Source: an uncultured Pseudomonadota bacterium (GTDB lineage: Bacteria; Pseudomonadota; Alphaproteobacteria; Rs-D84). Taken from it: a DNA stretch of 64,000 nucleotides. Made by a program: the position numbers and the translations under genes. The notes below the pieces were generated by a model that saw only the letters and a program-made list of their open reading frames with translations, was not told where the DNA came from and did no database searches. Positions within the stretch are counted from its first letter, which is position 1. Each line of letters starts with the position of its first letter. Shown here piece by piece: positions 21,626 through 45,903 of this stretch. The stretch spans positions 23,952 through 87,951 of the forward strand of contig CAMZFU010000001.1 of the NCBI GenBank assembly GCA_947306185.1, in the 5' to 3' direction.

Positions 21626-21630
21626 TGTTT

Positions 21631-23268
21631 TTAATAAACCCCCGGTCTATCCAGCAAACCGACCCAACGTTCTAATTCATCAACACCGATTATCCCACGC
21701 AACATCAATTCACTTGCCGCCTCTTTCAATGTACGACCATCCATTTCTTCTAACCAATATTTCACCGCGGCATCTGTGTCACCGGAAAGTGCAAGTTTTA
21801 GAAATTCACTATTTGTAATAATAATTTCACCGGCCTTGATACGTCCATGGGTACCCGTTCCGCCACAATGTTCACATCCCGCCCCACGAATATACACCTG
21901 TTTCAATCCGATCTCTCCAAATGCATCCATAACACGATTATATTCAGAATGTTCGGGGTGATCCGCCAAATGTTCACGACAATGCGGGCACAACCGTTTA
22001 AACAAACGCATAGAAACAAGCCCTCGCATCATCGTTTCTTCTTTTAATTTGAATGCCTCAACCCCCATATCCAATAAACGCACCAATGCAGCCATCGCAG
22101 AATTTGCATGTAATGTTGTCCAAACATTATGCCCAGACAGCGCACCTTTGACCGTTAATTGTGCCGCGGCAAGTGTTCGTATTTCACCAACCATCAATGT
22201 ATCAGGGTCACTGCGTAATGCGGCGGCCAACGCCTCGGTATATTCAGATTCACGTTGTTCTTCGGTTGCGGTATTAACAACAGGAATCTGGTGCGCACCG
22301 AATATTTTTTGCTCAACCGGGTCTTCAACCGTAATAAGGTTTATTTCATAATGATGTTCCTTTAACATCAAAACCATATTACGAACAAGTGTTGTCGATT
22401 TACCAGAACTTGTCGGCCCCGCAACGACAACCAATCCTGTCGGATAAGAACGCAAACGATGCAATAAACGCTGTTCATATTTACCAAATTCTTGTTCGGT
22501 TGTTATATTTTCAGATGGGTTATCATACAACAATCGCATAACAACATATCGTGATCCAAATGCAATCGGATTGAATTGCATTCTGATACTAAGCACCCCC
22601 TGGGGCAGATATAAATCTTTGGTTCCACGCAAAGGTGTACGACCATCTTTCTGGGCCGATTGATATTCATTTTGCGCATAGTTTGCATTTGAAATATCAG
22701 CTGATGCAAATGCCGCACGAACAAAAGATTCACCCCAGCCAGAATTGAATTCCAATACTGGTTGCATACTGCCGTCTATGCGAAAATATATTGTTGTTTG
22801 GTCTGCAACCTCGATATGAATATCAGAAACTTTTTGTGCCGCCGCGCGCGCAACAATATCAACAAAATCTTTCTGCATTTGATTGTTATAATCAACGCGC
22901 GATTTTATCGCATCCCCAAGTTTGTTTTCGTGATATGCATATATTGCGGAAACCAACCCCAAATCAGAATAAAACGGTATACGCAATGGACGATTTTTTT
23001 TGGTTAACAAATCCATAAAGGCCAGCACACGACCATCATATCTGTGTGTACGAGAAATTACAATGCATCCACCAGAAAAGTATGCCAATAACCCTTGCGT
23101 TTCTTTTGGTAATTCAAATTCACCGCCTGGTGCGGTCAAAAGTTTATTACCTTCGGAAAAAAGATATTCTACGATTTCTTTATTATCGGCATGTTCTAAC
23201 CCAGCCGGAACAGACGGTTTCCGGGAAATCGGCAAGTTATCCAAAACGCCATTATTTTCGGTCTTCAT
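21631..23268 (-). CDS. Type IV pilus / T2SS assembly ATPase (GspE/PilB/BfpD/PilQ family)
   Basis: Walker A VVAGPTSSGKST. SDIHIE and RIDG motifs. Walker B DPDTLMVGEIRT. His box GHNVWTTLHANSA. C-terminal tetracysteine CPHC…CEHC zinc motif. Confidence 0.85.
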   Translation of the reverse strand: MKTENNGVLDNLPISRKPSVPAGLEHADNKEIVEYLFSEGNKLLTAPGGEFELPKETQGLLAYFSGGCIVISRTHRYDGRVLAFMDLLTKKNRPLRIPFYSDLGLVSAIYAYHENKLGDAIKSRVDYNNQMQKDFVDIVARAAAQKVSDIHIEVADQTTIYFRIDGSMQPVLEFNSGWGESFVRAAFASADISNANYAQNEYQSAQKDGRTPLRGTKDLYLPQGVLSIRMQFNPIAFGSRYVVMRLLYDNPSENITTEQEFGKYEQRLLHRLRSYPTGLVVVAGPTSSGKSTTLVRNMVLMLKEHHYEINLITVEDPVEQKIFGAHQIPVVNTATEEQRESEYTEALAAALRSDPDTLMVGEIRTLAAAQLTVKGALSGHNVWTTLHANSAMAALVRLLDMGVEAFKLKEETMMRGLVSMRLFKRLCPHCREHLADHPEHSEYNRVMDAFGEIGLKQVYIRGAGCEHCGGTGTHGRIKAGEIIITNSEFLKLALSGDTDAAVKYWLEEMDGRTLKEAASELMLRGIIGVDELERWVGLLDRPGVY

Positions 23269-23269
23269 T

Positions 23270-24010
23270 TTATTTTGCTAATTCCGTCTTGTTTTTACTG
23301 CCAACATTAAGTGTTTGTGTTTCGCCATCTTTGATAAACGTAACACCTTCGTCCAATGATATAGATTTCACCATAAATCCATCAACATCTTTACCAACGC
23401 TGATTTTTTTATTTTGTCCGTTTGCTAAATCTTGGATTGTCGCCTGTAACTGTTCGCCTGCACCATAAACATTTATAAGTTTATACCTTTTTGTAATTTC
23501 TGTTTCTGGTTGTTCTTCTTCGGCAATAAATGATTTCTTTGAGGCCGCAGATGCCGCCGCAGTCAATGCACCAACCGGCGACACTTGATTTGCATCCAAT
23601 GCTTCTTTTTCTTTTTCCAAACGTTTTGCTTCGGCCTCTAAACGAACACGTTCTGTTTCAAATTCCTGCTGTTGCTGTTCTGCACGGCCGGATAGCGTGT
23701 CTATTTCCATATGCAATTTTATTTTTTCGGCCGCCAACCTATCCAAATCAAGATTCAACTGTGCGCGTTCTTTTTCTAATTGCATTAAAACCTTTTCTTG
23801 TTCCAAATCTGTGATTTGTTGGAACAAGGAACCTTCAATCTGATAATCTTCAATTGCACCCGCAGAAATTTCATCGTTCAATTCATCAACGTTATTAACA
23901 GATTCTATAACATCTATGACATTATCAAATTCCGTTGGCTCATCCGCGTGCGCCACAGATGCGATTCCAACCACAAAGATACACAATAATATTTTTATTT
24001 TACTTTGCAT
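23270..24010 (-). CDS. Periplasmic coiled-coil protein, PilP/BfpU-like position in the operon
   Basis: Signal peptide MQSKIKILLCIFVVGIASVAHA. Long Q/E coiled coil. Small C-terminal beta domain. Confidence 0.35.
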   Translation of the reverse strand: MQSKIKILLCIFVVGIASVAHADEPTEFDNVIDVIESVNNVDELNDEISAGAIEDYQIEGSLFQQITDLEQEKVLMQLEKERAQLNLDLDRLAAEKIKLHMEIDTLSGRAEQQQQEFETERVRLEAEAKRLEKEKEALDANQVSPVGALTAAASAASKKSFIAEEEQPETEITKRYKLINVYGAGEQLQATIQDLANGQNKKISVGKDVDGFMVKSISLDEGVTFIKDGETQTLNVGSKNKTELAK

Positions 24011-25304
24011 AGATTATCACCTCATAGTTCCAGATTTTCTTTATCATATTCCATGACACTTTTGTCATGTACACCCCGCCGAAACCGTCAAAGATTTGCA
24101 TAAACTCATACGGTATCATTTTTGATTCTGCGGAAACTTCAACAACATATATCTCTGCGGATTGCGTACTGTTTGCAATAACATCCGATGTAATATTCAT
24201 ATTCACATCAAGTTTTATTGCCTGAAATCTGCTTGTTAATTCGCGCACTATTGTATCCGCATCGCGTTCATCACGTGATGGCGACGGCACACGTTCCGGT
24301 AACTTTGCACGCACAGATATTTCATTATCACTTAATTCTTGTACAAAAACCCCAGGCATAATTTCCGCGGCCACCGCATAAAAATCATCCAATGTTCCAA
24401 AAGAACGTCTGAAAACCGCACTAACATATTTTTCTTCACATTCTGCCGAAACCTGAACCCAACCCGTAACCGGTTGCATCAAAAAACCAATCGCCTTGTA
24501 ACACAAATCTGCGCGTTCAATTGCATCTGGTAATAAATCAAACGGCATCACAAGTGGTTCTATGACCGGTTCTTGGTGCAAGTTATATTCTTTATCCAAC
24601 TCTTTATTCTTGGCCTCAATTTGTCGTTTATATTCCGCGGCAAGTTCTGGGTTTATCTTGGCAACTTGTGGTGTTGCGGTAAACATCTGATTTATTGGTT
24701 CACGGAATAGATACAAGAACAATAACGCAAATAAAAACAACATTAAAAATGACACTGCACCCGCCCCCATACGACTTATTGGATGCAAAGTACCATGTGT
24801 ATTTACCGACAATAATTCACGCAAATCACGATCAATCGCACGTGGCATTCCCCATTCTGACGGCGCAATCAAAGCATTCCAATCTGGGATATCGGTTAAT
24901 TCCGCATACTTTTCACGCGCATCAGTTTCATTATCGAACAACAAATCGTGCAGTATCACGCCATTTCTAACTGCAATTAAAATATATTTACCATCAATAT
25001 GAAATGCGCATAACATAGATGCGTATCCAGGCAAAGATTCTATAATTTCGGCTGCAAGTGACGGCATACCAGAACGCTGACCCAAACTACGTGCCCCAAG
25101 GCCAATCATATCACCATATGCAATATAACGATTTAATCTACGGTCAATACCACGGGCCAATTTTGCCGCATATGCACGTGGTGTGAAGCCCGCAACCATC
25201 GGTTGCCACAACAACCCAGCGGCATATTTTTTCCGTCTAATGTGTACATATTGGCCTGACAATTTCTCTCTCCCGATACATATCGTGATAGAATTATAAC
25301 ACAA
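24000..25304 (-). CDS. Bitopic inner-membrane protein (cytoplasmic N-domain, one TM, periplasmic domain), BfpC/PilO(R64)-like position
   Basis: 434 aa. Single TM GAGAVSFLMLFLFALLFLYLF at mid-length. Immediately upstream of and overlapping the ATPase operon. Confidence 0.35.
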   Translation of the reverse strand: MCYNSITICIGREKLSGQYVHIRRKKYAAGLLWQPMVAGFTPRAYAAKLARGIDRRLNRYIAYGDMIGLGARSLGQRSGMPSLAAEIIESLPGYASMLCAFHIDGKYILIAVRNGVILHDLLFDNETDAREKYAELTDIPDWNALIAPSEWGMPRAIDRDLRELLSVNTHGTLHPISRMGAGAVSFLMLFLFALLFLYLFREPINQMFTATPQVAKINPELAAEYKRQIEAKNKELDKEYNLHQEPVIEPLVMPFDLLPDAIERADLCYKAIGFLMQPVTGWVQVSAECEEKYVSAVFRRSFGTLDDFYAVAAEIMPGVFVQELSDNEISVRAKLPERVPSPSRDERDADTIVRELTSRFQAIKLDVNMNITSDVIANSTQSAEIYVVEVSAESKMIPYEFMQIFDGFGGVYMTKVSWNMIKKIWNYEVIIYAK

Positions 25305-25373
25305 ACCGACAAATCAATTCCAGTATAAAAAAACCGTTATATAAATAACGGCCTTATTTTTATGTCTTTTATC

Positions 25374-25811
25374 TTATCTGGTTACACATCCACCTGGTGG
25401 AACACCGTAAAAACCCGCACTCTCACATTTTGTGATTTCGTGTTCTGGCATTGGTTGATCAGACCGCGCAGTTTTAACATTCAACACATTCGGACAATCG
25501 TAAACATTTGCCGCCAATATAAAACTACGTTCTGGACCAAACACAACCCATTCGTTTGGTTTTGTCCGTTCACTAACAATCCAATACGCATTACCTGGAC
25601 GCGCCTGATCAGCAATACGATTTTCAAGATATCTGCGCGCATCATCTTGGTCATACACAGAAACAGATGATTCCAGTTTATACAAGAAAACGCACCCAAT
25701 TGGTTCGCCATCCAGTTGTTTAAGATGTTCACTGCCGTTTTCATTTTTTATATATCCACCACAACCAACCATCACAAACGCGGCAAACAACAAAGCCAAA
25801 TATTTTTTCAT
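25374..25811 (-). CDS. Small lipoprotein (145 aa)
   Basis: Lipobox LLFAAFVMVGC-GG. Sits 25 nt downstream of lpxC. Confidence 0.5.
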   Translation of the reverse strand: MKKYLALLFAAFVMVGCGGYIKNENGSEHLKQLDGEPIGCVFLYKLESSVSVYDQDDARRYLENRIADQARPGNAYWIVSERTKPNEWVVFGPERSFILAANVYDCPNVLNVKTARSDQPMPEHEITKCESAGFYGVPPGGCVTR

Positions 25812-28544: not shown

Positions 28545-31500
28545 TTGTTAAAATATAGACCGAAACTATGGGGGAATGTTATGATAAATGCGTCTAATCC
28601 AATATTGGAACAAAGCGATTTCGAGGCATTGCGCCTTTATGACCCCGATAGTACATTGCATAAAGAAATTGGTGAAAAAGTCCGCCAAATTTTTATAAAA
28701 CTGTTCCAAAATACCGATATAAATATTGACGATTTCTATTTTACCGGTTACGACAGCGATGAAGCCAATGCATTTTTTATCGAAGGTTCTAACACCAAAA
28801 ACGGCAAAAATGTTATCGCTGTGTCTTATGGTTTGATTATGGCATTATCAAACACCGAAGAATTAGCGGCAATTATCGGACACGAATGCGGACATTACCT
28901 GTGGTCACAATTATTGGGCGGCCGAAACACAATATTCCAAGAACGCGCCGCGGACCTGCGTTCGGTTGATTTAATGATAAACGGCGGATATAACCCACGC
29001 AATGTTTTGTCGGCCGAAAACAAGGTTTTTGGTCAATCTGGTAAAAAAATAGATTATCAAAGTGTGACCTTGGATGTTCATGGCAACAGTTTTAATCGTA
29101 TTGAAGATGTTAAAACATACCTAACCAAATTATCATTGGAACGCGGATATTTCCCCGAAGTTAACCCATCCGACCCCGAATACGATGCATTTAAACAAAA
29201 AATACAAGAAACCAGAAAAAACGAACCATATCTTTCTTTTCTTGATAAGGCAATACAGGAGTGGGCAAGTAATTCATTTAAATTCGCACCCAACGAACGT
29301 GCACAGACATTAGATGCGATAGATTATTATTTAGATGAAATAGTAAAAAACGAAACGCGACTTAATGACCTTGTAAAAGTTTATAAAACATTTGATTATG
29401 CAAATAAACCGGCTTCCGAAGATCACTTTAACCATGAAACAACCCTACTGGAAAGAATTGTTGATAAACTTATTGAAAAATCTGAAACAAATCCAACTAT
29501 TGAAAAATACATTTGGCAAATATTAAGTCTTTCTCAACTTAAATTTTATGGGAAGTTTAACACATTATATTATGCTATTGGGGACCTAATATCTTCATTT
29601 GAACATAATGTTGAAGAAGCCGCCCAAAAAATTATTGAAAATGCGGTATATATTCCACTGGCAACCGCATTAACAGATTTTACAGAACACACTATTGAAT
29701 TTGTCCCAGACAAATATACTATCGGTAAAAAACCATATTGGGTTCGCCTAAGGGAAAAGAATAATCCAGAAATAAATCAGGCACTTAGTTTGGTATCACA
29801 AAGACCAACCCGTATGTTGGTATATAATGAAAAAGATTATATGTATGATAAAGACGGAAACATAATCGCGTACGGCGAAAAATGTGCCAAACTTATTCAA
29901 GAAGAAAAAGAAAGAAAAAATATCGCCCAAGCAAATGAAATCTTTGATAAATTGGCAAATGCACACATAGAACAACTGGCACAATATGAAAAAATAAAAG
30001 ATTTCGTGGACGGAAAAATTGATCCAAAAAATATGGATTACGATTTTGTAATGAAAACATTTCAAGAATGGATTGTCGCCCCAAGCTTGGAAATGTTAAA
30101 CAACAGAAATGGTGAAGAATCCCAGTTAAAACAATATGTAAATAAACTTGATAAAACCAAAATACTAAGTCATTACAATGCGCTTATTTCTTCGTCATAT
30201 TATCGCGATTATAAAAAATACACAGACGAACTTGGAAATTCGCTTGAAATAAGCGCCCCGCAACAATTCCCCGAAGACACAGAAAATTCAGAAATATTAA
30301 AATGGATTTCATGTTTGTATGGTAGTCGGCTACAACAATATATAACCGAATGCACGGTATGTGACGCATATATAAAAATGGGTGAATACTATCATAAAAC
30401 AAATGCGTTGGCTTTAGAAGAAGAATTATACACAAACCTACTTAATAAGTCAGTCCGAAGTCAAGAAGAAACAAAACAATACATATCTGAAAAAGTACCA
30501 CTATACATATCAAAAAATCCGTTTGCCGGACCGCGTATGTATAGCGAAATAGTAAATGCAATTTTATCAGATATTGATAAAAACAAAACCGATATAATTG
30601 AAAATATTATCAAATGCCTTGGGTTTAAACGGTTGCCCAAAACCGAAGAAGAATTATTGTTCTTTATCAAACAAATGCAATTGTACAATTTCCATTATGT
30701 TAATGGTAATGTCGAAAGTGAACTTTGTGCATTTAATCCGTTCTTTCATTATGATACTGTTTATCCACAATTGAATATAACCGAAATTGGTACGGCATTA
30801 TTGGTCAACTATATGGCATCTGGGTACAAGTGTGATCCTATCAAAGTCATCAAATCGTTTGGATATGATACACCTTCTATATTCCTGCATAATTACAGAA
30901 ATATTTTAACAAAACTTATACCATACGAAATGTTTGACTCTTTTACATTGGAAGACAAAATATATTTATATGAATTTATGAATGAAAACACCGGGTTTTC
31001 CGAAGAAGCCGCAAATAAAAACTATTTTATAAAACAAATTGTTAATCAGATTATAACATACCCAGATTATAATACCGCCGTAGAATATGCGGAAAAGATA
31101 TTGATGCGTAAAAACATCTTTTATGCCACAGAAAAAAGAGACATCCATGATATAGAATTCGCGGTTGAACGTGAAAAATTAATAGATTTTTATTCTGATT
31201 ATTGGGCGCAAAAACTCGGGCGCGATGATGATTCACCAGAATTTGCACAAAAGGCACAAGAACTTGCGGGTTTCTTGGATTATGTTCCAGAACCCAAACG
31301 TCGATTCAATATTGGACGACTTAGTAGAGCCCGCGGGCCACGTAATTTTACCAAAAGTATGGCGGGGGCATTGGCGGATAAAATCGCAAATAAAATATAT
31401 GCCCAAGAAAACGTTACCAGAATTCTTGATTCTGTAAATGACAGAACTATTAAGGGTGGCGATGCGGAAAGGTTTGATTCCTTTGGTCGCGATGCCGATG

Positions 31501-33332
31501 CATTATTTAATTTACTTGCGGGTTCCCCAGAAAAAGCATTGGCAACCATAGAATTTATAAATGGTGAATTAACCGATGAATCCATACGAAAACTATTTTC
31601 TATTTTTACTAAGCGCGACCGTGACCAATTGAACAAACAATCTTTAACCATACTTCATGAAAATTTCTGGGCGGCCGATTTACCAATTCGTGCATACCTG
31701 ATGAATCGCCTGCTTAATGCATATAGTACCGAAGACGGTAAAAAACTACAACTTATCTTGGATATGTTCTTTAAGCCGGATTCAGAATATTACAATGATG
31801 CCAAGTTAATATTAAAATGCATTTATAAAAATCTGGACGAAATTGAACGCGGATTAATTTTGGCGGCATTGATTGCATCTGGTAAAAAATCTGGCGAAAA
31901 TGAAATGACATCTGGAACCGCGGTTGGCCGTGGATTAAAAATATTCTTGCAAAACAAAGGACCCGCATTTATTAAATTTGGACAATTGTTATCTTACCTG
32001 CCAAACCTTGACCCGGATATTCGTCATGAATTATCAACCCTGCGTGACAAGGCAAAAATACCAACACGCGCAGAATTGTTTGATATGTTAAGAACATCTT
32101 TACCAGAATCTGAATTCAATAAAATATCGTATGTTGGCGGAATACTGGGGGCCGGGTCATTCTTTGTAACCGTTCATGTTAAATACGATGACAAAGATTG
32201 CGTTATATCGCTTATGCGACCAAACACACAAAAACTGACATCGGACGGAATAAATATGATTGCAAAAACTATTCAGGATATGACCGCACAGGATCCAAAA
32301 TATGCCGTACTAACAAATATTGTAAATCAGGCGCGCGATTCCGCATACAGTGAAATTGATATTGAACAAGATCATAAAAAATATGTCGATGCGGTTAAAA
32401 TATATGAATCATTTACCGTTCATACACCTATGGGCGACTATTCGCCGGATGTTGCACGGTGGATGGCATACGGCGCCGCACCAGATAAAAACAACGCATA
32501 TAAAATTATGGAAATGTCACCGGGTGTACCACTTACTTCTGATGAATTGACCGAAGAAGAAAAACACGATATGGCGTTGGCATACACAACATTGGAATTG
32601 GCGATATTACTGTCCGGTAATAAATGGGATACCGACCGTCACGCGGGCCAACAAAACTTTTCAAATCCGGCATTTCGTGAATTCTGCATCGGAATTTTTG
32701 ATACCGGTGCCCAAATGAACAATGCACCAAATCGTCACGACAAACGGATAATGGGTTACCTGCTCTATCTGTTGATAAACGGCGTACGTAATGGTAAATC
32801 GATATCAGAAGTATTAACAACCAGTGTCCAATATATTGACCGTGTTTGTGAAAAATATGGTATCAGTACCGCGTATATTGATGGTGTACAACGCGGTATT
32901 ACCGCACTTTCCGATATTATTCAATATCAAAAAGAAGTCCGCGATGATAATGGAAACATTGTGCAAGAGGCTAAATCACTTACCGCCGAAGATTTGGAAA
33001 ATATCGCCGTGGCATTAATTGAATCAGGGGTAATTGACAGAACACTTATCAACACAACCAAAACACATTTTGTGTTAGATGTGTTATCATTCTGGAAACC
33101 AAAAGAAAATGCGCAACCGTTATCATTACCAAAACGCAAAAGTCCGATAAGTATCACCGTCGGTCCCGAAATTACAGTACAAATACAAACGCATCGTATA
33201 AACAAGGCCCAAGAAGAAATAGATAAAATGATTGCCGAACAACGCGCCAATGAACACCTTGGCGTCAAAGTCGGTTTAACAGAAAAGACACAACAAATAC
33301 CGACTACGCCACAAGAATTACGACGCGCATAA
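28545..33332 (+). CDS. Giant multidomain protein: N-terminal M48-like zinc metalloprotease domain plus C-terminal ABC1/UbiB-type atypical kinase-like domain
   Basis: 1595 aa. LAAIIGHECGHYL (HExxH) followed ~30 aa later by QERAADLRS (the M48 third-ligand E-x-x-A-D). Later FIKFGQLLSYLPNLDPDIRHELSTLRD…ISYVGGILGAGSFFVTVHV…DTDRHAGQQNF…IFDTGAQ matches the UbiB/ADCK motif order. Confidence 0.6.
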   Translation: MLKYRPKLWGNVMINASNPILEQSDFEALRLYDPDSTLHKEIGEKVRQIFIKLFQNTDINIDDFYFTGYDSDEANAFFIEGSNTKNGKNVIAVSYGLIMALSNTEELAAIIGHECGHYLWSQLLGGRNTIFQERAADLRSVDLMINGGYNPRNVLSAENKVFGQSGKKIDYQSVTLDVHGNSFNRIEDVKTYLTKLSLERGYFPEVNPSDPEYDAFKQKIQETRKNEPYLSFLDKAIQEWASNSFKFAPNERAQTLDAIDYYLDEIVKNETRLNDLVKVYKTFDYANKPASEDHFNHETTLLERIVDKLIEKSETNPTIEKYIWQILSLSQLKFYGKFNTLYYAIGDLISSFEHNVEEAAQKIIENAVYIPLATALTDFTEHTIEFVPDKYTIGKKPYWVRLREKNNPEINQALSLVSQRPTRMLVYNEKDYMYDKDGNIIAYGEKCAKLIQEEKERKNIAQANEIFDKLANAHIEQLAQYEKIKDFVDGKIDPKNMDYDFVMKTFQEWIVAPSLEMLNNRNGEESQLKQYVNKLDKTKILSHYNALISSSYYRDYKKYTDELGNSLEISAPQQFPEDTENSEILKWISCLYGSRLQQYITECTVCDAYIKMGEYYHKTNALALEEELYTNLLNKSVRSQEETKQYISEKVPLYISKNPFAGPRMYSEIVNAILSDIDKNKTDIIENIIKCLGFKRLPKTEEELLFFIKQMQLYNFHYVNGNVESELCAFNPFFHYDTVYPQLNITEIGTALLVNYMASGYKCDPIKVIKSFGYDTPSIFLHNYRNILTKLIPYEMFDSFTLEDKIYLYEFMNENTGFSEEAANKNYFIKQIVNQIITYPDYNTAVEYAEKILMRKNIFYATEKRDIHDIEFAVEREKLIDFYSDYWAQKLGRDDDSPEFAQKAQELAGFLDYVPEPKRRFNIGRLSRARGPRNFTKSMAGALADKIANKIYAQENVTRILDSVNDRTIKGGDAERFDSFGRDADALFNLLAGSPEKALATIEFINGELTDESIRKLFSIFTKRDRDQLNKQSLTILHENFWAADLPIRAYLMNRLLNAYSTEDGKKLQLILDMFFKPDSEYYNDAKLILKCIYKNLDEIERGLILAALIASGKKSGENEMTSGTAVGRGLKIFLQNKGPAFIKFGQLLSYLPNLDPDIRHELSTLRDKAKIPTRAELFDMLRTSLPESEFNKISYVGGILGAGSFFVTVHVKYDDKDCVISLMRPNTQKLTSDGINMIAKTIQDMTAQDPKYAVLTNIVNQARDSAYSEIDIEQDHKKYVDAVKIYESFTVHTPMGDYSPDVARWMAYGAAPDKNNAYKIMEMSPGVPLTSDELTEEEKHDMALAYTTLELAILLSGNKWDTDRHAGQQNFSNPAFREFCIGIFDTGAQMNNAPNRHDKRIMGYLLYLLINGVRNGKSISEVLTTSVQYIDRVCEKYGISTAYIDGVQRGITALSDIIQYQKEVRDDNGNIVQEAKSLTAEDLENIAVALIESGVIDRTLINTTKTHFVLDVLSFWKPKENAQPLSLPKRKSPISITVGPEITVQIQTHRINKAQEEIDKMIAEQRANEHLGVKVGLTEKTQQIPTTPQELRRA

Positions 33333-33337
33333 TAAAA

Positions 33338-34183
33338 TTATTTCGTCTGTGATTGTTTAATATCCATCACAAATCTTTTCGCCGCGACCAATGCGTCATA
33401 GAAGCTATCAAACGCGGCACCGATGTTATATACCTGAACACACCCAGGCATTTTTTTACAATAAGACGGTATTTCATACGGTTCAACGGTTGTTATGTTA
33501 TATGTTCCACGATGAGATTTTTTTACAATATATTTTACACGCGTACCACGAAATGCATTTCTATCAACATAATCGTCCAATGCTAAAATAACAAAATCAG
33601 ATGAAGCCAATTCTTTCGCACGATTTTTGTCTTTGATAAAATCACAAGATTTTTCAATCGTCGCACTAAGATACTTTGCCATATCATTGACAATTTTTGT
33701 AAACAGTTTTTTATTTTCCGCATCCGTGTATTTCATATTATTCATAGACGATATAAGAATGGATATTGTATTCGGATATTGTTCGGCACCAAAATTATCG
33801 GTTAAATCAATTTTTGATACAAAATCTATATCAAACTTTTTTGCTGCATCTATTGCTATTTGTGCATCAACATTATATTTCTTTTGTATGTATTCCGCAC
33901 CAACTTCGTTCCATAATAAACCAAACGCGGCATACTTATCACCATTCGGACGAACACGTGCGTCATCTTGGTGATGATCAAATGCACCACCACCAATATC
34001 AAAAGCCAATCCATTAAAACCTTGTGGCACACGACCAACACGCCCGATTTCTGAAATAGATTTTATAATTCCAGCCAATTTTAACAATGCCGCCGCAAAA
34101 ACATCATCCGCATGAAAACGACCGTTGTGTGTCAAAACACCATTTTTTGCAAGTTTTCGTAAAGATTTAATTTTTTCATACAT
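33338..34183 (-). CDS. MYG1/UPF0160-family metal-dependent hydrolase-like protein
   Basis: THNGRFHADDVFAAALL and FDHHQ motifs. Likely start MYEKIKSLRK. Confidence 0.5.
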   Translation of the reverse strand: MYEKIKSLRKLAKNGVLTHNGRFHADDVFAAALLKLAGIIKSISEIGRVGRVPQGFNGLAFDIGGGAFDHHQDDARVRPNGDKYAAFGLLWNEVGAEYIQKKYNVDAQIAIDAAKKFDIDFVSKIDLTDNFGAEQYPNTISILISSMNNMKYTDAENKKLFTKIVNDMAKYLSATIEKSCDFIKDKNRAKELASSDFVILALDDYVDRNAFRGTRVKYIVKKSHRGTYNITTVEPYEIPSYCKKMPGCVQVYNIGAAFDSFYDALVAAKRFVMDIKQSQTK

Positions 34184-34196
34184 TAAATTGATTACG

Positions 34197-36452
34197 TTAA
34201 TGTTTATGTTCCATACTTTCCTTTGCCGCCAGCACCAACATATCACTAATTGTGTTACCTTGAAGTAAATCTTCGACCTTCATATATTTACTTAATTCTT
34301 CTTTGGTATATGTCCGCTTTTTAAATGCTTGTTTTCTAAAGTTAATATACTCACGCTTCTTTTTGGTCGTTTTGGTAGAGTTATGATCTTCACAGAATCC
34401 AATTCCGACAATTATCAATTCTCCATCTGGTCCATTTGCAACGCCCCACACTATGCGCTTTTTATCGGTAGTTATGGAACTATCCACACTTTGGACAAGA
34501 CATGCGCCACCGTCTCTTTTTACATTTGTGGATACAGTTCTAACACCATTCTTGATAATATGAATACGGGTTTGATCTTGCATTTTCGGGTCAATTGGAT
34601 CAAGGTTGATTTCATTTATATCACGTAAAACATCATCTATTTTATGTTGTGAAGATGTTTCGATAGTTTTATATAAATCGTATGAAATATATTTTGTTAT
34701 ATTAATTGGTTGTTCCACTTTTTGCTTTTTAACTGGTTTAGGCGCTTTTTCTTGTTTTGTTGTTGTCTGATTTTCTGCCAATTTACTTTTTATTAATTCC
34801 TCACGCTGTTCGTCTTCTTTTACAATTTTTAAAATTTCTTTGCACACAAGGTCTATTTGTGATGAATCGATACACACCACTGGTGTTCCATCGGCAAGTT
34901 GCATCATTCTCTTTTCTATTCCGTTTCTACGTTGATTGGACAAAACACGCTGTATCAGACGTTTTAACGCATCGTCTGGTATCATCGCAAAATCACTTTT
35001 TCTTTCTTTGCGACAATATTTCATAATATCTTTGACACCCATATGTTTTCCCGGAACCTTATGTTCAAGTATTTGTTTTGCTGGTACCGGATTTTCTTCT
35101 TTTGATTTTTGTGGTTCGGGCTTTTTATCAACCGCCTTTTCAACCTTATCGCTTAATGCATCTGATAATGTATTACCATTGGTATCAACAATATTTAAAT
35201 CCTGGTAATTTTTGGTGTCCTTATATTTTTCTTTATATTTTGCAACAAGTTCTTTTGCGGCGGCAAGATGTGGCGAACCCCTGCGAATTAATTTTGGTTC
35301 AACAATCAAAGTACGCAACCCCTTGCCCAGCGCACCTTTATTTAATATTTCTATCAACACGCTAAAATCCGTAATACTATACGCACAATTTATTGTCCGC
35401 GCATATGGCAGAACCGTATCTTTGGTTATATATTCTTTACCAAGATTTTGACAATTAAATGTTCCCTTTATCATAAAAGGAAACGTTTTGTTATTTTTGG
35501 CACAGGTGAAATCACCATCAATAACTATGTGATTCATACAAGAAAAATCAAAATCGTTGTTTTGCAAAGTCTTGGCATCTAAACTATTGCTAATTATTAT
35601 ATAACAATCTGGACGTTCAGATAAAACATGTTTGCATCTTTGTGATAGTACCTTTAGACCGCATTCTTCGGGTACATCTATTTGTTTACCTTCTGTATCA
35701 ACCGCAATAAAAGTTATTCTGGTTTCTGGGTTAATACCAACCTGTTTATATATGGAAGCCGAGATAACATCTATGATGGATGAATCCACCCATTGTTCAA
35801 AATTCAATTCCATTGTTCCAGATTTGGTATTTTTTGTTACCACCATACCCTTTAATGCGCGTATTATCACAGACAGTGTTATTCCATCAGGAAGTTTTTT
35901 TGGTAATTTTTTTAGAATATTTGTTTTATATTCATCAAATTCTTTCAATATGTTTAAATATTCCACCGCCCCAATTTCATCTGGAAAACCAAACTTCCAC
36001 CAAACATCTATTTGGTGTTTTTTCAATTCGCGTAACGCGGACATATATTCCAATACGTTTGCCCCATCGGGAATACCAGTAGTACGTAAAATTTCTGTTT
36101 GATATTCCTTTAATTGCCCCAGTATATTCAATATATCATGTGCACTTGCTTGTTCTTGATATTTTGGGTCTATACGTTCCAATGCTATCATTTGGTGGTA
36201 TTCTAATGCCTGTCCCAACAACGCCAATTTTAGACCAGAATCCCCATTCATACTTTTATAACAACTAAGCCTTTGCATAAGTTGTATCTGAAGAAGTTTA
36301 AATTCTGGATCCATCAATTGTTTTGTCGTCAAATGTTTCATTTCCAAAAATAACTGTACAGCTTCCTCGCTGGTTTCCATCGGATCACCTGCCAGCACGC
36401 GCCGTACATTACTTTTATAAATTTCAAACAAATCTTCTTTATTTGGCATCAT
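34197..36452 (-). CDS. Large hypothetical protein, paralog family member A (shares C-terminal module with 39820..41364)
   Basis: ORF to 36497 begins with TTG that is part of a TTGACA -35 box. Probable start MMPNKEDL at 36452 after a GGGG RBS. N-terminal ~30-aa helical repeats, lysine-rich linker, conserved module …YITKDTVLPYARTINCAYSITDF…LRTLIVEP…. Confidence 0.5.
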   Translation of the reverse strand: MMPNKEDLFEIYKSNVRRVLAGDPMETSEEAVQLFLEMKHLTTKQLMDPEFKLLQIQLMQRLSCYKSMNGDSGLKLALLGQALEYHQMIALERIDPKYQEQASAHDILNILGQLKEYQTEILRTTGIPDGANVLEYMSALRELKKHQIDVWWKFGFPDEIGAVEYLNILKEFDEYKTNILKKLPKKLPDGITLSVIIRALKGMVVTKNTKSGTMELNFEQWVDSSIIDVISASIYKQVGINPETRITFIAVDTEGKQIDVPEECGLKVLSQRCKHVLSERPDCYIIISNSLDAKTLQNNDFDFSCMNHIVIDGDFTCAKNNKTFPFMIKGTFNCQNLGKEYITKDTVLPYARTINCAYSITDFSVLIEILNKGALGKGLRTLIVEPKLIRRGSPHLAAAKELVAKYKEKYKDTKNYQDLNIVDTNGNTLSDALSDKVEKAVDKKPEPQKSKEENPVPAKQILEHKVPGKHMGVKDIMKYCRKERKSDFAMIPDDALKRLIQRVLSNQRRNGIEKRMMQLADGTPVVCIDSSQIDLVCKEILKIVKEDEQREELIKSKLAENQTTTKQEKAPKPVKKQKVEQPINITKYISYDLYKTIETSSQHKIDDVLRDINEINLDPIDPKMQDQTRIHIIKNGVRTVSTNVKRDGGACLVQSVDSSITTDKKRIVWGVANGPDGELIIVGIGFCEDHNSTKTTKKKREYINFRKQAFKKRTYTKEELSKYMKVEDLLQGNTISDMLVLAAKESMEHKH

Positions 36453-36587
36453 ATACCCCAGCCCCATAAAAATAACACAAAAAACATAAAATGTCAATAA
36501 AATTGTTATACTTAACGTTTTTGATATTATACTTATAACAAATCATAAAAGAAATAATATTATAAAGAGACTGGATTTAATTAGTAC

Positions 36588-36613
36588 AAAAGTGGCGATT
36601 TTTTCGCCACTTT
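36588..36613 (-). terminator. Terminator-like hairpin downstream of 36629..37429
   Basis: aaaGTGGCGAttttttCGCCACttt. Confidence 0.5.
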
Positions 36614-36628
36614 CTTAATTAAACTATT

Positions 36629-37429
36629 TTATACAGACCGCCCACTTCTAATTTGTTCCATTGGGTTTATTGGTGATTTTTTTTCTAAACCTGTTGGTGT
36701 TTCGTCAAGTTTCTTTGTTAAAAATTCAATAACAGAATAAATTTGTGTTTTATTCAAAGAATTATTAAGTCGCCTAGATGATATAACCTCTGTGATTTCT
36801 TTAATTTCAAGTCCCCTTTGCATAAAACAAAGTGCGACTTTTTTGATAATCTGAATAATATATTCTGCTAATTTTTCCGAAGATAACTTTCTTAAATAAT
36901 CAGTTAAAATTCCGCAAGTATATAAAAAATAAACTTTTAATGGTTCATTTTTACTTTCTTTCACGTTTAAATCTATGAAACTGATACCTTCTTCGGAATA
37001 AAAGAAATTTGTTGTTTTTGAAGGGTCAATTATTAATCCCGCGTTTTCAATGGCCAACCAATCAGATACAAACCTATCTATTTTTTTGATATCCATATTG
37101 GCAATATCGCGTAATCTTTTTTCATACTCTTCTTCGGACATTTCACTATTATATATTTCGGTACCTTTCGCACGTGGTTGCAAAATATATCCACGTGCAT
37201 ACCCAAGTTCATTCGGCGGATAAACAATTTTATATTCCAATGTTGGAACAACGGCGATACCTTTATCTTTCAATACGTTCGTAATCAAAATTACTTTTTT
37301 TATTTCGTCTTCCTTAAATCCACCGGCCAATAAAACATAATCATCAAAGACACGAACTTTTTTATTTCCACCCTTTTTTAATGGGGTATCATTTTTGAAA
37401 CGTAATTCTATAAATTTATCTATCAGCAT
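36629..37429 (-). CDS. Hypothetical protein; possible kinase-like fold
   Basis: 266 aa. LIIDPSKTTNFFYSEEGISFIDLN resembles an APH/protein-kinase catalytic loop plus metal-binding Asp. Weak. Confidence 0.35.
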   Translation of the reverse strand: MLIDKFIELRFKNDTPLKKGGNKKVRVFDDYVLLAGGFKEDEIKKVILITNVLKDKGIAVVPTLEYKIVYPPNELGYARGYILQPRAKGTEIYNSEMSEEEYEKRLRDIANMDIKKIDRFVSDWLAIENAGLIIDPSKTTNFFYSEEGISFIDLNVKESKNEPLKVYFLYTCGILTDYLRKLSSEKLAEYIIQIIKKVALCFMQRGLEIKEITEVISSRRLNNSLNKTQIYSVIEFLTKKLDETPTGLEKKSPINPMEQIRSGRSV

Positions 37430-37600
37430 ATTATTCCCCTTTTAAGTATACTATATCACAAATATACTAGATTGATATTAATAAAATGCTATTTGTTAAG
37501 ATTCAATACCCCCATATAAATAACTTGTTTTTGCGCGTTTTTTTACCTAAAATTATATCATCTAGAAACCAGTATAAAAGACAAACAAAAAGGTCAAAAA

Positions 37601-38602
37601 ATGATTCTAGTAACAGGTGCCACAGGATTTATTGCTTCACATACAATCGTTGAATTACAAAATAATGGTTTTGATATTGTTGGTATAGATAATTTATGTA
37701 ATTCATCGGTTAGTGTTTTGGATAACATCCAAAAAATTACAGGTAAAAAAATAGAATTTTCCAATATCGATATTCGCGATAAGGATGCATTAAAAAATTT
37801 CCTATCTGGATATAAAATTGATACTTGTATTCATTTTGCCGGATTAAAAGCGGTTGGCGAATCTGTGGCCAAGCCTGTTGAATATTATGATAATAACATT
37901 TCTGGAACAATATCTTTGTTGAAAGTTTTGAATGAAATAGGATGCAAAAATATTATTTTTTCGTCCAGTGCGACTGTTTATGGAATACCTGCATTTGTGC
38001 CGATTACCGAAGAATGCCCAAAAGGAATATGTACAAATCCATATGGTTGGACTAAACACATGATAGAACAAATTTTGGTGGACACGCAAAAAGCAAACCC
38101 AGACATGAATATTGTTATTTTACGTTATTTTAATCCGGTCGGTGCGCATCCATCTGGTCTGATTGGTGAAAATCCAAATGGTATTCCAAATAATTTGATG
38201 CCTTATATTACCCAAGTTGCGTGCGGAAAACGTGAAAAATTGTTTGTGTATGGCAATGATTACGATACACCCGATGGCACAGGTGTCAGAGATTATATCC
38301 ATGTGGTTGATTTGGCGCGTGGGCATGTGTGTGCAATGTCCGCAATTGATAAAAAGTGTGGATTAGAAATATTTAATCTGGGGACGGGACATGGATATTC
38401 TGTACTGGATGTAATTAACACTTTCGAGAAAGTAAATAATATAAAAATCCCGTATGAAATTACGGCACGTAGACCGGGCGATATTGCAATGTGCTATGCC
38501 AATCCAGAAAAAGCGAAACGCGTATTAGGATGGGTTGCGGAACATTCTTTGGATGACATGTGTCGTGATTCTTGGAATTACCAAAATAATTTGAATGTTT
38601 AA
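37601..38602 (+). CDS. galE: UDP-glucose 4-epimerase
   Basis: MILVTGATGFIASH Rossmann motif. YxxxK region. Full-length 333 aa colinear with GalE. Confidence 0.85.
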   Translation: MILVTGATGFIASHTIVELQNNGFDIVGIDNLCNSSVSVLDNIQKITGKKIEFSNIDIRDKDALKNFLSGYKIDTCIHFAGLKAVGESVAKPVEYYDNNISGTISLLKVLNEIGCKNIIFSSSATVYGIPAFVPITEECPKGICTNPYGWTKHMIEQILVDTQKANPDMNIVILRYFNPVGAHPSGLIGENPNGIPNNLMPYITQVACGKREKLFVYGNDYDTPDGTGVRDYIHVVDLARGHVCAMSAIDKKCGLEIFNLGTGHGYSVLDVINTFEKVNNIKIPYEITARRPGDIAMCYANPEKAKRVLGWVAEHSLDDMCRDSWNYQNNLNV

Positions 38603-38678
38603 TTTGCCCCAAATTGTGTGCGGTTCTCGAACCGAGTTGGTTGAAATAGGGCGGGAGATTGATAGGATGAGACATAAG

Positions 38679-38990
38679 TTATTTTTCTAAATCTTGCATA
38701 ATGTCTGTATAATACAATACCTGTTTACTATGTTGTTTTGCATATTCAATCTCTAAACGCGTAGAATCACCAATATAATTATTTACATTTACAACCAATA
38801 TCGCATCAGAAATTTCTATTTTTTTTAAATGTGCGTTTTTTAATTTTTGTATTTGTTCCATGGTATAATTTTCTGTATCTGAATTTGGAAATATAGGTGT
38901 TATTACACAATGCCCCAGAAAAGTCATTTTTTCTGCGATACTTATCATCTCTTGTTTATATTTCAAACTACCGCATATTGTTATTATCAT
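38679..38990 (-). CDS. Nucleoside 2-deoxyribosyltransferase-like small Rossmann protein (DUF4406-like)
   Basis: MIITICGS…GHCVITP…SDAILVVN…GDSTRLEIEYAKQHSKQV pattern. Start overlaps upstream ASCH stop (ATGA-type coupling). ORF-track start at 39107 lies inside the ASCH gene and is unlikely. Confidence 0.45.
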   Translation of the reverse strand: MIITICGSLKYKQEMISIAEKMTFLGHCVITPIFPNSDTENYTMEQIQKLKNAHLKKIEISDAILVVNVNNYIGDSTRLEIEYAKQHSKQVLYYTDIMQDLEK

Positions 38991-39385
38991 TTTATGTCTT
39001 TTTCTGCTAAATCTATATTCCAAAGCATTTGATATCCACGTGCCGGAATTGGTTCTTTTAGAATTTTTAATACTTTTAATTTCCAAGCATAACGTCCAGG
39101 TGTCCAAATTCCAAAATCTTTTTCAGTGATTGGTTGGCGTTTGATAATTTCATCAGTCATTTCAATACAATCTTGTAATTCACAAATGACAATTATTTTA
39201 CCGTATTCCAGATTAGTTATATTATAACGCTTTGCTAGTTTTTTTAATTCTGGTGATAACTTTTTAACAGATGTGTGAATAGCCAAAGGCCCACGGTATG
39301 ATGTTGCCCAAGACCGTGTTTCATATTTTTTTAATCCAAGTATTATTGCGGTTGCATAAGGTTGGTATAAAGTAAATGCTTTCAT
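38987..39385 (-). CDS. ASCH-domain protein (PUA-like fold)
   Basis: MKAFTLYQPYATAIILGLKKYETRSW…YRGPLAIH is the canonical ASCH N-terminus. Confidence 0.6.
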   Translation of the reverse strand: MKAFTLYQPYATAIILGLKKYETRSWATSYRGPLAIHTSVKKLSPELKKLAKRYNITNLEYGKIIVICELQDCIEMTDEIIKRQPITEKDFGIWTPGRYAWKLKVLKILKEPIPARGYQMLWNIDLAEKDIK

Positions 39386-39487
39386 AATTTATTATTATAT
39401 CACAAATAGTTCAAAAGTAACAAAAAACCGCCATTTTTTTAAATTACACTTTCGAACTTTTTGTAGGTATTGGGAAACAAATAAAAA

Positions 39488-39510
39488 CTTGCCCCGGTGG
39501 GCAAGTTTTG
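39488..39510 (-). terminator. Terminator hairpin after tRNA-fMet 3'-end duplicate
   Basis: CTTGCCCcggtGGGCAAGtttt (+ strand). On the minus strand it is followed by a T-run. Confidence 0.55.
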
Positions 39511-39516
39511 AAACTC

Positions 39517-39536
39517 TGGTTGCGGGGGATGATTTC
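39517..39536 (-). repeat. Direct repeat: partial copy of tRNA-fMet 3' end including CCA
   Basis: +strand tggttgcgggggatgatttc vs tRNA tggttgcgggggatggatttg at 39688-39708 (one indel). Confidence 0.8.
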
Positions 39537-39654
39537 GCTCGCGCGGCAACTGCGGATTTTTGCCTTTGGCAAACCGGCGTGTTTCCACCCGCCTAATCCT
39601 TGTGGTGAACCACCTTACCCCGGTGATTCAACCATCATAACTATTAAAATAAAA

Positions 39655-39675
39655 ATGTGACCGTATTGGCCACAT
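39655..39675 (-). terminator. Terminator hairpin immediately 3' of tRNA-fMet
   Basis: atgtgaccgtattggccacat flanked by A/T runs. Confidence 0.6.
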
Positions 39676-39687
39676 TTTCATTTTAAC

Positions 39688-39764
<77 letters not shown>

Positions 39765-39819
39765 ATAAACGGCACTAATTATAAATCATATTTTTTTGTT
39801 GTCAAACGAAATATGAATT

Positions 39820-41364
39820 TTAGTGCGCAGAACGCGACATATCTGCCATTTTTTGTAATGCTAAATTACTGCTGCTAGATAAAAATGACAAGACAATAAC
39901 GCTGCTATCTGAATTACCGTCATCTGTTTTAGGTTTACGTTCTTCAATAACTTTATCCAAATTTTCGATAAAGGTATTAAAATCAGAAAAATTGATACTA
40001 TCTACAAGGTTACCTTCTTTATCCAAAACTTTTTTCTTGGTAAGGTTTGTATATTTCAAGGCCTCCTTGATAAAATTTCTTAATTCTCTATCTGAAAATT
40101 TATCTGCACCATATTTGTCCTGAACTGAACGAACATACATTATCAAATCTTTAACTGTTAAATCTGTACCCAATATTTTAGATTCAGCATCTATTCTGGT
40201 TGTTTTTCTTTCAACTGGTTTAACAGTTTGTTCTTCTTGGACCGGTATTTTCTTGATGTCAATATCATTAGATATTTCTATAAGTTTATTCAACAAAATA
40301 TTACCCTTGGTATCAACAACAATAACACCTTGGTACAGCTCTACGAACTTTAATACATCGGCAAGATTTTTGCAGATATATTCTTTTTTAAGAAATCCTG
40401 GTTCAACAACCAACGTTTTTAACCCCGCTGGTAATGTACCAACCATGTCGCCTTTTTCATCTGTGGTAAAGAACACATCAAAACCACTGATACTATAGGA
40501 GCAATCTATTTTTTCTGCTACCGGAAATACAGTATCTTTTGTAATATAACTTGGTTCACCTTTTTCTGCGTCACCCTTACCCAAACCCACAAAGTAAACT
40601 GTACCTTGTACTTTTTTCGGTAATGTCTTGCCATACTTTGATGCATAGAAATCACCACCAACGATAATACGACCAATGAACGCATCATCTAATTCCGATT
40701 TTTTATCAATACATTTTCTTAGGTCAAGATTACCTTTGATACGTACAATTTTACCGGGGTAATCGGCCAAAATATTTTTGCATGCAACAGCAATATTTCC
40801 GGAAACAAAGCCGTTCATTATAAATTTTTCGTCTTCATCCAACAATTCAACTTCTGTTGCTTTACCAGATTTACCAACTTCTTGTTTATGTATAATGCTG
40901 CTAAGGTATTCTTTCGCATTTTCTGGTACAAAATCAGGGTATTTAACAATCACTTCTACACCTTGACCGTTTTGTGCCCTACTATACTGAACACCACGCA
41001 GTGCAAGCAATAAGCCTATTCTATTTATACCTTTTGGGGCCTCACCTATAAATATCGCTTCTTCCACTGTCACCTTTAAATACATCAATGATTTGATTTC
41101 CTTCGGTGAAAATTTGTAATGCTTCATAACCATTTCTGGTGTTAAATTTGGTTCCTTTTTCTGTGGTATACTTAAATCAGAACCCTTGCCAAAACGTTTT
41201 TCAAAATCATCTGCGTCTAACAAAAACACGTTTTTTGGATCCAAAACACCACCTGGCAAACCAACAGAATTTAATAACGCATTTTTTGCTTGGTCATCAA
41301 CATCAATTGGTGTAACCCCCATCATCTTAAGAAAATCTAATAAAATATCTAATGAATCGTCCAT
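39820..41364 (-). CDS. Large hypothetical protein, paralog family member B (shares C-terminal module with 34197..36452)
   Basis: 514 aa. …YITKDTVFPVAEKIDCSYSISGFDVFF…LKTLVVEPGF…VIVVDTKGN…TVKDLIMYVRS… is colinear with the 766-aa protein. Confidence 0.5.
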   Translation of the reverse strand: MDDSLDILLDFLKMMGVTPIDVDDQAKNALLNSVGLPGGVLDPKNVFLLDADDFEKRFGKGSDLSIPQKKEPNLTPEMVMKHYKFSPKEIKSLMYLKVTVEEAIFIGEAPKGINRIGLLLALRGVQYSRAQNGQGVEVIVKYPDFVPENAKEYLSSIIHKQEVGKSGKATEVELLDEDEKFIMNGFVSGNIAVACKNILADYPGKIVRIKGNLDLRKCIDKKSELDDAFIGRIIVGGDFYASKYGKTLPKKVQGTVYFVGLGKGDAEKGEPSYITKDTVFPVAEKIDCSYSISGFDVFFTTDEKGDMVGTLPAGLKTLVVEPGFLKKEYICKNLADVLKFVELYQGVIVVDTKGNILLNKLIEISNDIDIKKIPVQEEQTVKPVERKTTRIDAESKILGTDLTVKDLIMYVRSVQDKYGADKFSDRELRNFIKEALKYTNLTKKKVLDKEGNLVDSINFSDFNTFIENLDKVIEERKPKTDDGNSDSSVIVLSFLSSSSNLALQKMADMSRSAH

Positions 41365-43182: not shown

Positions 43183-43183
43183 A

Positions 43184-45604: not shown

Positions 45605-45903
45605 GCCGATAATCTCCGTGGTATTTTACTTCTTATCATTTTTATTTTTGCAATCAAAACTTGCCCTATTTGTGAATCATTTTTTGCAAATTTTGCAAAC
45701 ACCATATGAACCAGACACACAGATATCAAAAAATACAGTGGATTAAGGAACTTGTTTACAAAATCAGGAAAAACCATTAAACCAACAACATACAAGACAA
45801 TAAACACAACGAACTGAACCATAAAATTCAGTATCGCCAAAGTATACGGCACACCAAACAAAAGCGATGGATTCGCCAAAGCTTTTAGTACTTGTTGTCT
45901 CAT
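45601..45903 (-). CDS. virB3: Type IV secretion system protein VirB3/TrbD family
   Basis: 100 aa. MRQQVLKALANPSLLFGVPYTLAILNFMV matches the VirB3 LxKGLTRPxxxFGVP motif. Two TM helices. ATGA overlap with virB4. Confidence 0.7.
   Translation of the reverse strand: MRQQVLKALANPSLLFGVPYTLAILNFMVQFVVFIVLYVVGLMVFPDFVNKFLNPLYFLISVCLVHMVFAKFAKNDSQIGQVLIAKIKMIRSKIPRRLSA

Follow-up and report, generated by a model that had tools for sequence, protein, structure and literature searches.

What would a bacterium with a strongly reduced genome do with a single polypeptide that carries a metalloprotease at one end and a kinase-like fold near the other? The question is raised by a 64,000-nucleotide stretch of DNA (the window) from an uncultured gut alphaproteobacterium of the order Rs-D84 (assembly GCA_947306185.1, contig CAMZFU010000001.1, positions 23,952 to 87,951), in which an earlier reading of the sequence (the original prediction) had singled out one very long gene, here called the giant gene, as encoding an M48-type protease fused to a UbiB-type domain and as a possible translocated effector. 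We find that its product is a soluble zinc protease joined to a UbiB/COQ8-type atypical kinase-like domain from which the usual ATP-binding lysine is missing, and that this fusion is a common, fixed architecture within its alphaproteobacterial branch (Rs-D84/Candidatus Enterousia).

Gene structure and domain order

Read directly from the window sequence, the open reading frame (ORF) runs uninterrupted from 28545 to 33332 on the forward strand, as had been proposed. The start assumed at first, TTG 28545 (1,595 amino acids [aa]), adds 12 codons that are absent from homologs; the first in-frame ATG lies at 28581, 5 nt downstream of a ribosome-binding site (GGGGGA, 28570 to 28575, forward strand, likewise read directly), and all aligned homologs begin at the equivalent methionine. 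Because of this ribosome-binding site and the agreement with homolog N termini, ATG 28581 is most likely the real start, giving a coding sequence of 28581 to 33332 (stop codon, 33330 to 33332) and a protein of 1,583 aa whose residues we number from that methionine. A promoter and terminator scan found no more sites than shuffled controls. From N to C terminus, the protein comprises an M48 protease domain, an alpha-solenoid of ~550 residues, a helical domain of ~320 residues, the UbiB/COQ8-type kinase-like domain, and a tail of ~120 residues. Mean pairwise identity differs widely among these regions (kinase-like, 61%; M48, 48%; pre-kinase helical, 43%; C-terminal tail, 34%; middle solenoid, 23%). 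All of the motifs on which the fusion had been proposed (GHECGHYL, QERAAD, KFGQ...R.D..P, GAGS, VISLMRP, DRHAGQ, and FDTG) are present.

The M48 protease domain

Residues 1 to 230 (28581 to 29270, forward strand) form a soluble M48 zinc metalloprotease domain with HExxH, a third zinc ligand, and an H...R motif. HExxH corresponds to H101-E102-C-G-H105 (nt 28881 to 28895). The third ligand is E121, within a QERAAD helix that also holds D125, and both residues align with the ENQAD of the soluble Geobacter peptidase Q74D82 (PDB 3c37). Further downstream, V-H167-G-N-S-F-N-R173 aligns with T-H-P-L-T-S-E-R of 3c37 (the THPxxxxR motif), with Gly instead of Pro in most members. The Pfam model Peptidase_M48 (PF01435) matches at 39.6 bits against a cut-off of 20.3, covering only profile positions 6 to 77 of 186, and the family profile matches 3c37 in two stretches that take in HExxH, the E-x-x-A-D helix, and the H...R motif. 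An AlphaFold2 model of residues 1 to 800 (predicted local distance difference test [pLDDT], 84.5) is matched by Foldseek to Escherichia coli BepA and 3c37 with probability 1.0 and has the M48 (gluzincin) fold. In the broad family, 138 of 139 members have H101, E102, H105, and E121, and 132 have D125; H167 is present in 117 and R173 in 112, most of the remainder being gaps. Among close members HExxH is invariant (44/44). The N-terminal domain is a bona fide soluble M48 protease and is probably active.

The original prediction that the protease would lack membrane helices and a signal peptide was borne out: the giant protein has neither a signal peptide nor a membrane-spanning hydrophobic stretch (maximum Kyte-Doolittle 19-residue window, 1.51). 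On the protease side, its closest known counterparts are soluble, namely BepA (PDB 6sar and 6ait) and 3c37, with Ste24/ZMPSTE24 and HtpX more distant. It differs from BepA, which is periplasmic, in having no signal peptide and from HtpX and Ste24 in having no membrane helices; the spacer between HExxH and the glutamate ligand is ~15 residues, compared with ~50 in 3c37. Compared with these proteins, it also has a much longer helical region, which continues into the kinase-like domain.

The UbiB-type kinase-like domain

A full UbiB-type motif series does lie ~1,000 residues downstream of the protease, in residues 1101 to 1460 (31881 to 32960, forward strand), where we assign a UbiB/COQ8-type atypical kinase-like domain from the motifs, a structural model, and profile-profile alignment with hhalign. 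The landmarks are K1132-F-G-Q1135 (KxGQ), a G1190-A-G-S1193 loop, S1210, R1213-P, the alphaC glutamate E1258, the catalytic loop D1350-T-D1352-R-H1354-A-G-Q1357, and F-D1374-T-G. Curated models barely detect it. A domain scan upheld the predicted Peptidase_M48 match and not the predicted ABC1 match: Pfam ABC1 has no match to the whole protein or to the isolated C-terminal part, even at E ≤ 10. The UbiB models TIGR01982 (E = 4e-9, 35.5 bits, cut-off 487.55) and NF003404 (27.2 bits, cut-off 667) fall below their curated thresholds, compared with 621.3 and 931.6 bits, respectively, for an E. coli UbiB control (the control sequence was verified by its NCBIfam equivalog score of 931.6 bits). Sequence-profile searches of the PDB with two family alignments returned the M48 protein 3c37 only and no kinase.

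Profile-profile and structural comparisons place the domain. An AlphaFold2 model of residues 781 to 1583 (pLDDT, 78.7; predicted template modeling score, 0.72) has a kinase-like fold nearest to UbiB structures, and hhalign matched the family profile to E. coli UbiB at 93.4% with a shallow alignment and at 97.1% (E = 7.6e-11, 327 columns) with a 174-sequence alignment. The deeper alignment brings KFGQ, the glycine/alanine loop, the beta3 strand, the alphaC Glu, the hinge, the catalytic loop, and the D-x-G motif into register with UbiB. In it, E1258 aligns with the Glu of UbiB DELN, D1350-T-D1352-R-H1354-A-G1356-Q1357 with H-A-D-M-H-P-G-N, and F-D1374-T-G, shifted by one residue, with I-D-C-G. 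The predicted absence of the canonical beta3 lysine was correct, as S1210 (CVISLMRP) aligns with the Lys of UbiB VVIKVIRP. The UbiB family (human COQ8A/ADCK3, PDB 4ped; E. coli UbiB; and Mycobacterium tuberculosis Rv3197/MABP-1, PDB 5yjz) is the closest known group for this domain. Compared with UbiB, the giant protein has Ser or Ala for the beta3 Lys, Gln for the catalytic-loop Asn, and a G-A-G-S loop where UbiB has the Ala-rich A-S-A-S-I-A-Q; it scores far below the curated UbiB/ABC1 thresholds and has no membrane anchor, and its domain sits near the end of a 1,583-aa protease-bearing protein in a host reported to have no respiratory chain.

These differences bear on a further possibility, that the protein is a classical UbiB controlling the biosynthesis of ubiquinone or menaquinone, with an incidental fusion to a protease. 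In favor of this explanation, both fold and motifs are those of UbiB. However, the scores lie far under the equivalog cut-off (35.5 against 487 bits, with no Pfam ABC1 match), the beta3 Lys and the C-terminal membrane anchor of E. coli UbiB are missing, and genomes of the order Rs-D84 (Enterousia), mostly smaller than 1 Mb, are reported to lack the tricarboxylic acid (TCA) cycle, respiratory chains, and most biosynthesis (PMC12306168). Because Rs-D84 is reported to have no respiratory chains, a role in coenzyme Q or quinone synthesis is unlikely, and we give the classical explanation as a whole a very low probability.

Conservation of the kinase-like active site

Across 173 family members, the residues expected at a UbiB active site are kept almost without exception: K1132, D1350, D1352, and H1354 in 173 each, Q1135 in 172, E1258 in 171, and D1374 in 170. 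Two positions depart from this pattern. The beta3-Lys position holds A (57), S (43), R (17), K (16), Q (13), or G (12); the close clade has no K or R there at all (0/53; A39, S12, G2), and the 33 members that do have one are some distant members (Lys) and an ~1,900-aa subfamily (Arg). The catalytic-loop Asn position is Gln in 149 of the 173 and Asn in 18. Six of the seven UbiB signature residues are nearly invariant, and the kinase-like domain is the best-conserved region of the protein. On these counts, the M48 and kinase-like active sites are both under purifying selection.

The same data could be explained by a dead pseudokinase, a possibility that the original prediction had raised. The domain would then act only as a scaffold or as a switch that binds a nucleotide or another ligand, and the M48 protease would be the sole enzyme. 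Loss of the beta3 Lys from the entire close clade, its replacement in most of the wider family, and the Asn-to-Gln change all favor that explanation, as does the fact that canonical UbiB proteins such as COQ8/ADCK3 show little or no protein kinase activity. Yet dead domains usually lose the catalytic Asp and His, the DFG Asp, the alphaC Glu, and KxGQ, all of which are near-invariant here over a very divergent family, and several kinase-fold enzymes, such as WNK, are active without the canonical Lys. We therefore consider a dead domain unlikely. Thus, the predicted loss of the lysine stands, but "pseudokinase" is too simple a name for a domain with 61% identity and six near-invariant signature residues. 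A region that is better conserved than any other in the protein and keeps its catalytic residues does not look like a decaying pseudo-domain; a constrained, non-canonical nucleotide-dependent site fits better. Perhaps K1132 and Q1135 of the KxGQ lid contact the nucleotide in place of the beta3 Lys, although for K1132 this is conjecture.

Helical regions and C-terminal tail

Residues 231 to 780 (29271 to 30920, forward strand) are all helices in the AlphaFold2 model and show low identity, with weak matches solely to generic helical-repeat proteins, and we describe this region as a fast-evolving, alpha-solenoid-like linker or scaffold. Residues 781 to 1100 (30921 to 31880, forward strand), which we call preK, are helical in the model and kept across the broad family; preK has no Pfam or PDB sequence match and no recognizable relative. 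The C-terminal tail domain (residues 1461 to 1583; 32961 to 33329, forward strand) has a conserved HLGV motif, a residue invariant in the close-homolog alignment (G1561), and a mildly basic end (...TTPQELRRA), and its hidden Markov model (HMM) matches the closer subfamilies only. This end is basic although the protein as a whole is strongly acidic (net charge, −42). In the family, the last 25 residues carry a mean net charge of +2.3 and are positive in 78% of members, compared with +0.67 and 53% for background ORFs; no conserved Arg motif was found in them.

Family size and distribution

A word-indexed search returned 44 clusters of 1,530 to 1,720 aa, the sole name given being "M48 family metalloprotease [Alphaproteobacteria bacterium]." An exhaustive profile search with the C-terminal half extended the family to at least 745 representative clusters (clustered at 50% identity) at E ≤ 1e-3, of which 341 remain at E ≤ 1e-30. 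When six domain HMMs of our own were applied to the best 150 matches, nearly all full-length proteins (1,400 to 2,600 aa) kept the M48, pre-kinase, and kinase-like domains in the same order. The fusion had been put forward as undescribed, and literature searches (on the fusion, on Rs-D84 with type IV secretion, and on Micavibrio with Rs-D84) indeed found no paper describing the family; it is no one-off, however. Common as it is, public records name its members only "M48 family metalloprotease" or hypothetical. We conclude that the family is not a categorically new system: a UbiB-like subfamily that has diverged and lost the lysine is set within a fixed M48-solenoid-UbiB architecture.

A genome scan located 41 loci, all from uncultured gut, rumen, or related metagenome-assembled genomes (MAGs; Candidatus Enterousia, RUG/RGIG bins, and "Rickettsiales bacterium"). 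For 38 of these loci the record label is Alphaproteobacteria, proteobacterium, or one of their subgroups. Three more (L034, L038, and L041) are labeled "uncultured Muribaculaceae bacterium" while bearing the alphaproteobacterial giant gene; these MAGs look taxonomically mislabeled, because a 0.72-Mb chromosome (L038, OZ246409.1, a 716,531-bp "chromosome 1") suits Rs-D84 and not Bacteroidota. The ~1,900-aa subfamily includes one MAG labeled Micavibrio sp., on a 2.4-Mb contig, and a homolog search for cultured Micavibrio returned MAG sequences only.

Each genome has one to three copies of this 4.7-kb gene, a notable retention in genomes smaller than 1 Mb, and some copies are in tandem (L006, 9941 to 19223; L012, 7992 to 17262; L017, 9962 to 18947; and L040, 9980 to 22775). 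One copy is broken up into two ORFs in each of L012, L013, and L037, the first with M48 and the first middle segment and the second with the rest; these may be frameshifts, pseudogenes, or assembly errors. Such splits are what one would expect if the ORF were an artefact, whether a chance frame, a chimeric assembly, or a decaying pseudogene. We rejected that explanation, whose probability we put close to nil: the 4.75-kb frame is intact, full-length orthologs at 31 to 85% identity occur in dozens of independent assemblies, and the catalytic residues are invariant.

Genomic neighborhood

Upstream of the giant gene, on the opposite strand, lie DUF374-LpxK-LpxC and a pilus cluster of PilO, PilP, T2SSE, and T2SSF genes. 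Downstream, the order is a low-GC, non-syntenic stretch (a MYG1-like gene, two paralogs, an epimerase gene, and tRNA-Met), LrgAB, a gene for a lipoprotein-like 203-aa protein, VirB4, and VirB3. VirB4 (806 aa; 43184 to 45604, reverse strand) and a VirB3-like membrane protein (100 aa; 45601 to 45903, reverse strand) thus lie within ~10 kb of the giant gene. With the 203-aa protein, which has a lipoprotein-like signal, they make up a small type IV secretion system (T4SS) fragment (42571 to 45903, reverse strand) set apart from other vir genes, as in Rickettsiales. VirB6 to VirB11 and VirD4 are not in the 64-kb window, and no genome-wide search for them was made; a search of the window for additional T4SS genes and for genes of type I secretion found only VirB3/VirB4, the type IVb-pilus-like cluster, and housekeeping genes.

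The 203-aa gene accompanies VirB4 in 11 related loci. In eight of the related loci (L005, L006, L007, L012, L013, L014, L018, and L030), VirB3-VirB4-lipoprotein lies directly upstream of the giant gene on the same strand, so that a single strand carries VirB4, then the 203-aa gene and the giant gene, and, 0.6 to 9 kb farther on, DUF374-LpxK-LpxC; the intervening DNA may hold further genes, and in L006 and L012 it holds a second paralog. The ortholog group of the giant gene therefore occupies a conserved chromosomal neighborhood and not an island. Nor are there paralogous giant proteins nearby: no other large ORF of the window matches any of the six domain HMMs, and the 766- and 514-aa ORFs are paralogous to each other and not to the giant protein.

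Several features of the surroundings are recorded here in their own right. The pilus cluster (20555 to 25811, reverse strand) resembles an R64-type thin (type IVb) pilus, with PilO-like and PilP-like proteins, a T2SSE ATPase, a T2SSF platform, and a conserved 145-aa protein; its PilP-like protein scores 32.6 bits against the TIGR03021 cut-off of 34.65. The cluster adjoins LpxC-LpxK-DUF374, is kept in related genomes, and could be an attachment organelle of a partner-dependent cell. On the other side, the non-syntenic stretch (33338 to 41364) has a GC content of 0.31 to 0.35, compared with 0.39 to 0.40. It begins with a convergent MYG1/UPF0160-like exonuclease gene (33338 to 34246, reverse strand) that ends 5 bp from the giant gene's stop and has no counterpart in related loci. 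The 766-aa (34197 to 36497, reverse strand) and 514-aa (39820 to 41364, reverse strand) mutual paralogs (27% identity over 423 aa, E = 4e-27) flank tRNA-Met on either side and have no Pfam or NCBIfam match; a relative occupies the same place in L001. The last 16 nt of the tRNA-Met gene (39688 to 39764, reverse strand; CTGGTTGCGGGGGATG) are exactly repeated 171 bp downstream (39516 to 39531 and 39687 to 39702), which looks like an att-like remnant of integration. A separate 766-aa protein (13769 to 16069, reverse strand) is unrelated to that at 34197 to 36497, its sole match being a weak, sub-threshold one to the TcdB toxin N-terminal helical domain.

A conserved neighborhood also suits a housekeeping enzyme that is peculiar to the lineage and stays in the cytoplasm without ever being exported, such as an ATP-regulated protease in quality control of (membrane) proteins or in regulated proteolysis. 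Its position beside VirB4 and the lipid A genes would then be inherited gene order only. The giant gene is a syntenic core gene and not an island gene, and its product has no signal peptide or transmembrane segment. The family is present across the whole order and in larger-genome relatives with unrelated neighbors, and the M48 relatives HtpX, BepA, and Oma1 are quality-control proteases. PADLOC defense models gave no match, and no defense-system or phage signature was found. On the other hand, a 550-residue middle at 23% identity and tandem paralogs would be unusual for such an enzyme in strongly reduced genomes, the C terminus is basic, and no bacterial group beyond that of the 41 loci appears to need such a protein. 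We regard a housekeeping role as possible, if doubtful.

Proposed function

Our best overall explanation, offered tentatively and with somewhat less than even confidence, is a two-enzyme machine exported to a partner cell by a route other than Sec. In it, the variable solenoid would pick a target, and the M48 domain would cut it. The UbiB-like domain would not be a protein kinase; it would serve as an ATP-binding or ATP-hydrolyzing module that senses or handles a hydrophobic ligand or lipid, or that gates the machine, acting as COQ8 and Rv3197 are thought to act but without the beta3 lysine. From the conserved residues, we infer that the protease and kinase-like centers are both functional. 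A variable middle between conserved ends is a pattern frequent in host-interaction proteins and counts in favor of this explanation. Rs-D84 bacteria have been proposed to be partner dependent, as symbionts or parasites (PMC12306168). Because they are reported to depend on a partner and to lack respiratory chains, and because the giant protein has no Sec signal, we consider it most likely that this protein would act on a partner or host cell after non-Sec export. A VirB-type T4SS would be the obvious candidate route, with VirB3 and VirB4 nearby, and the basic C terminus may be compatible with a VirB-type signal, as weak evidence.

Other observations weigh against export and against two working centers. 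Around the second paralog group and the distant subfamilies, the gene contexts are unrelated and show neither T4SS genes nor a recurring partner gene; because of this, the T4SS link is suggestive for one ortholog group only. Even there, a conserved neighborhood in a reduced genome may be plain inherited synteny. The bias in C-terminal charge is a modest one and comes from a comparison of sequences that are mutually related and not independent. Micavibrio aeruginosavorus ARL-13 is reported to have neither a type III secretion system nor a T4SS (PMC3189940), though no family member was found in any cultured Micavibrio either. Finally, loss of the beta3 Lys together with the Asn-to-Gln change could mean that the kinase-like domain no longer turns over ATP. 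The original idea of a translocated effector is thus possible and unproven.

LegK, SidJ, and HopBF1 are multi-domain secreted effectors with atypical kinase folds from intracellular bacteria, which depend on another cell. The giant protein resembles the Legionella LegK kinases, the SidJ pseudokinase, and HopBF1 in being large and soluble, with no Sec signal and with a kinase-like fold joined to other modules for enzymatic activity or targeting. The likeness is an analogy only: homology does not extend past the kinase fold in general (HopBF1 model, E = 0.015), and secretion of the giant protein is only proposed. A survey of Legionella kinases (PMC9758233) describes no kinase family that carries a peptidase domain, whether M48 or another. 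More speculatively, and in our estimation improbably, the family could be an unrecognized class of exported two-headed effectors of partner-dependent and predatory Alphaproteobacteria (Rs-D84 and Micavibrio-like), in which a protease is paired with a UbiB-type domain devoid of the lysine. On the partner membrane, that domain would carry out a chemistry other than that of a kinase or would use ATP to handle lipids or hydrophobic ligands. If true, this would be the first UbiB-type domain acting between cells and would provide a naturally soluble model for the UbiB mechanism.

UbiB/COQ8 proteins are ancient and disease-linked, and their mechanism is poorly understood. A divergent branch that has dispensed with the "essential" lysine while keeping the other active-site residues, and that is soluble and fused to a protease, is a natural experiment on what a UbiB active site needs. 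Pfam does not see the kinase-like domain of this branch, and hundreds of annotations could be put right with a model built for the family. For the organisms themselves, which have genomes of less than 1 Mb and are believed to live at the expense of other cells, the giant gene is among the largest retained, which makes it a strong candidate component of the machinery for interacting with those cells.

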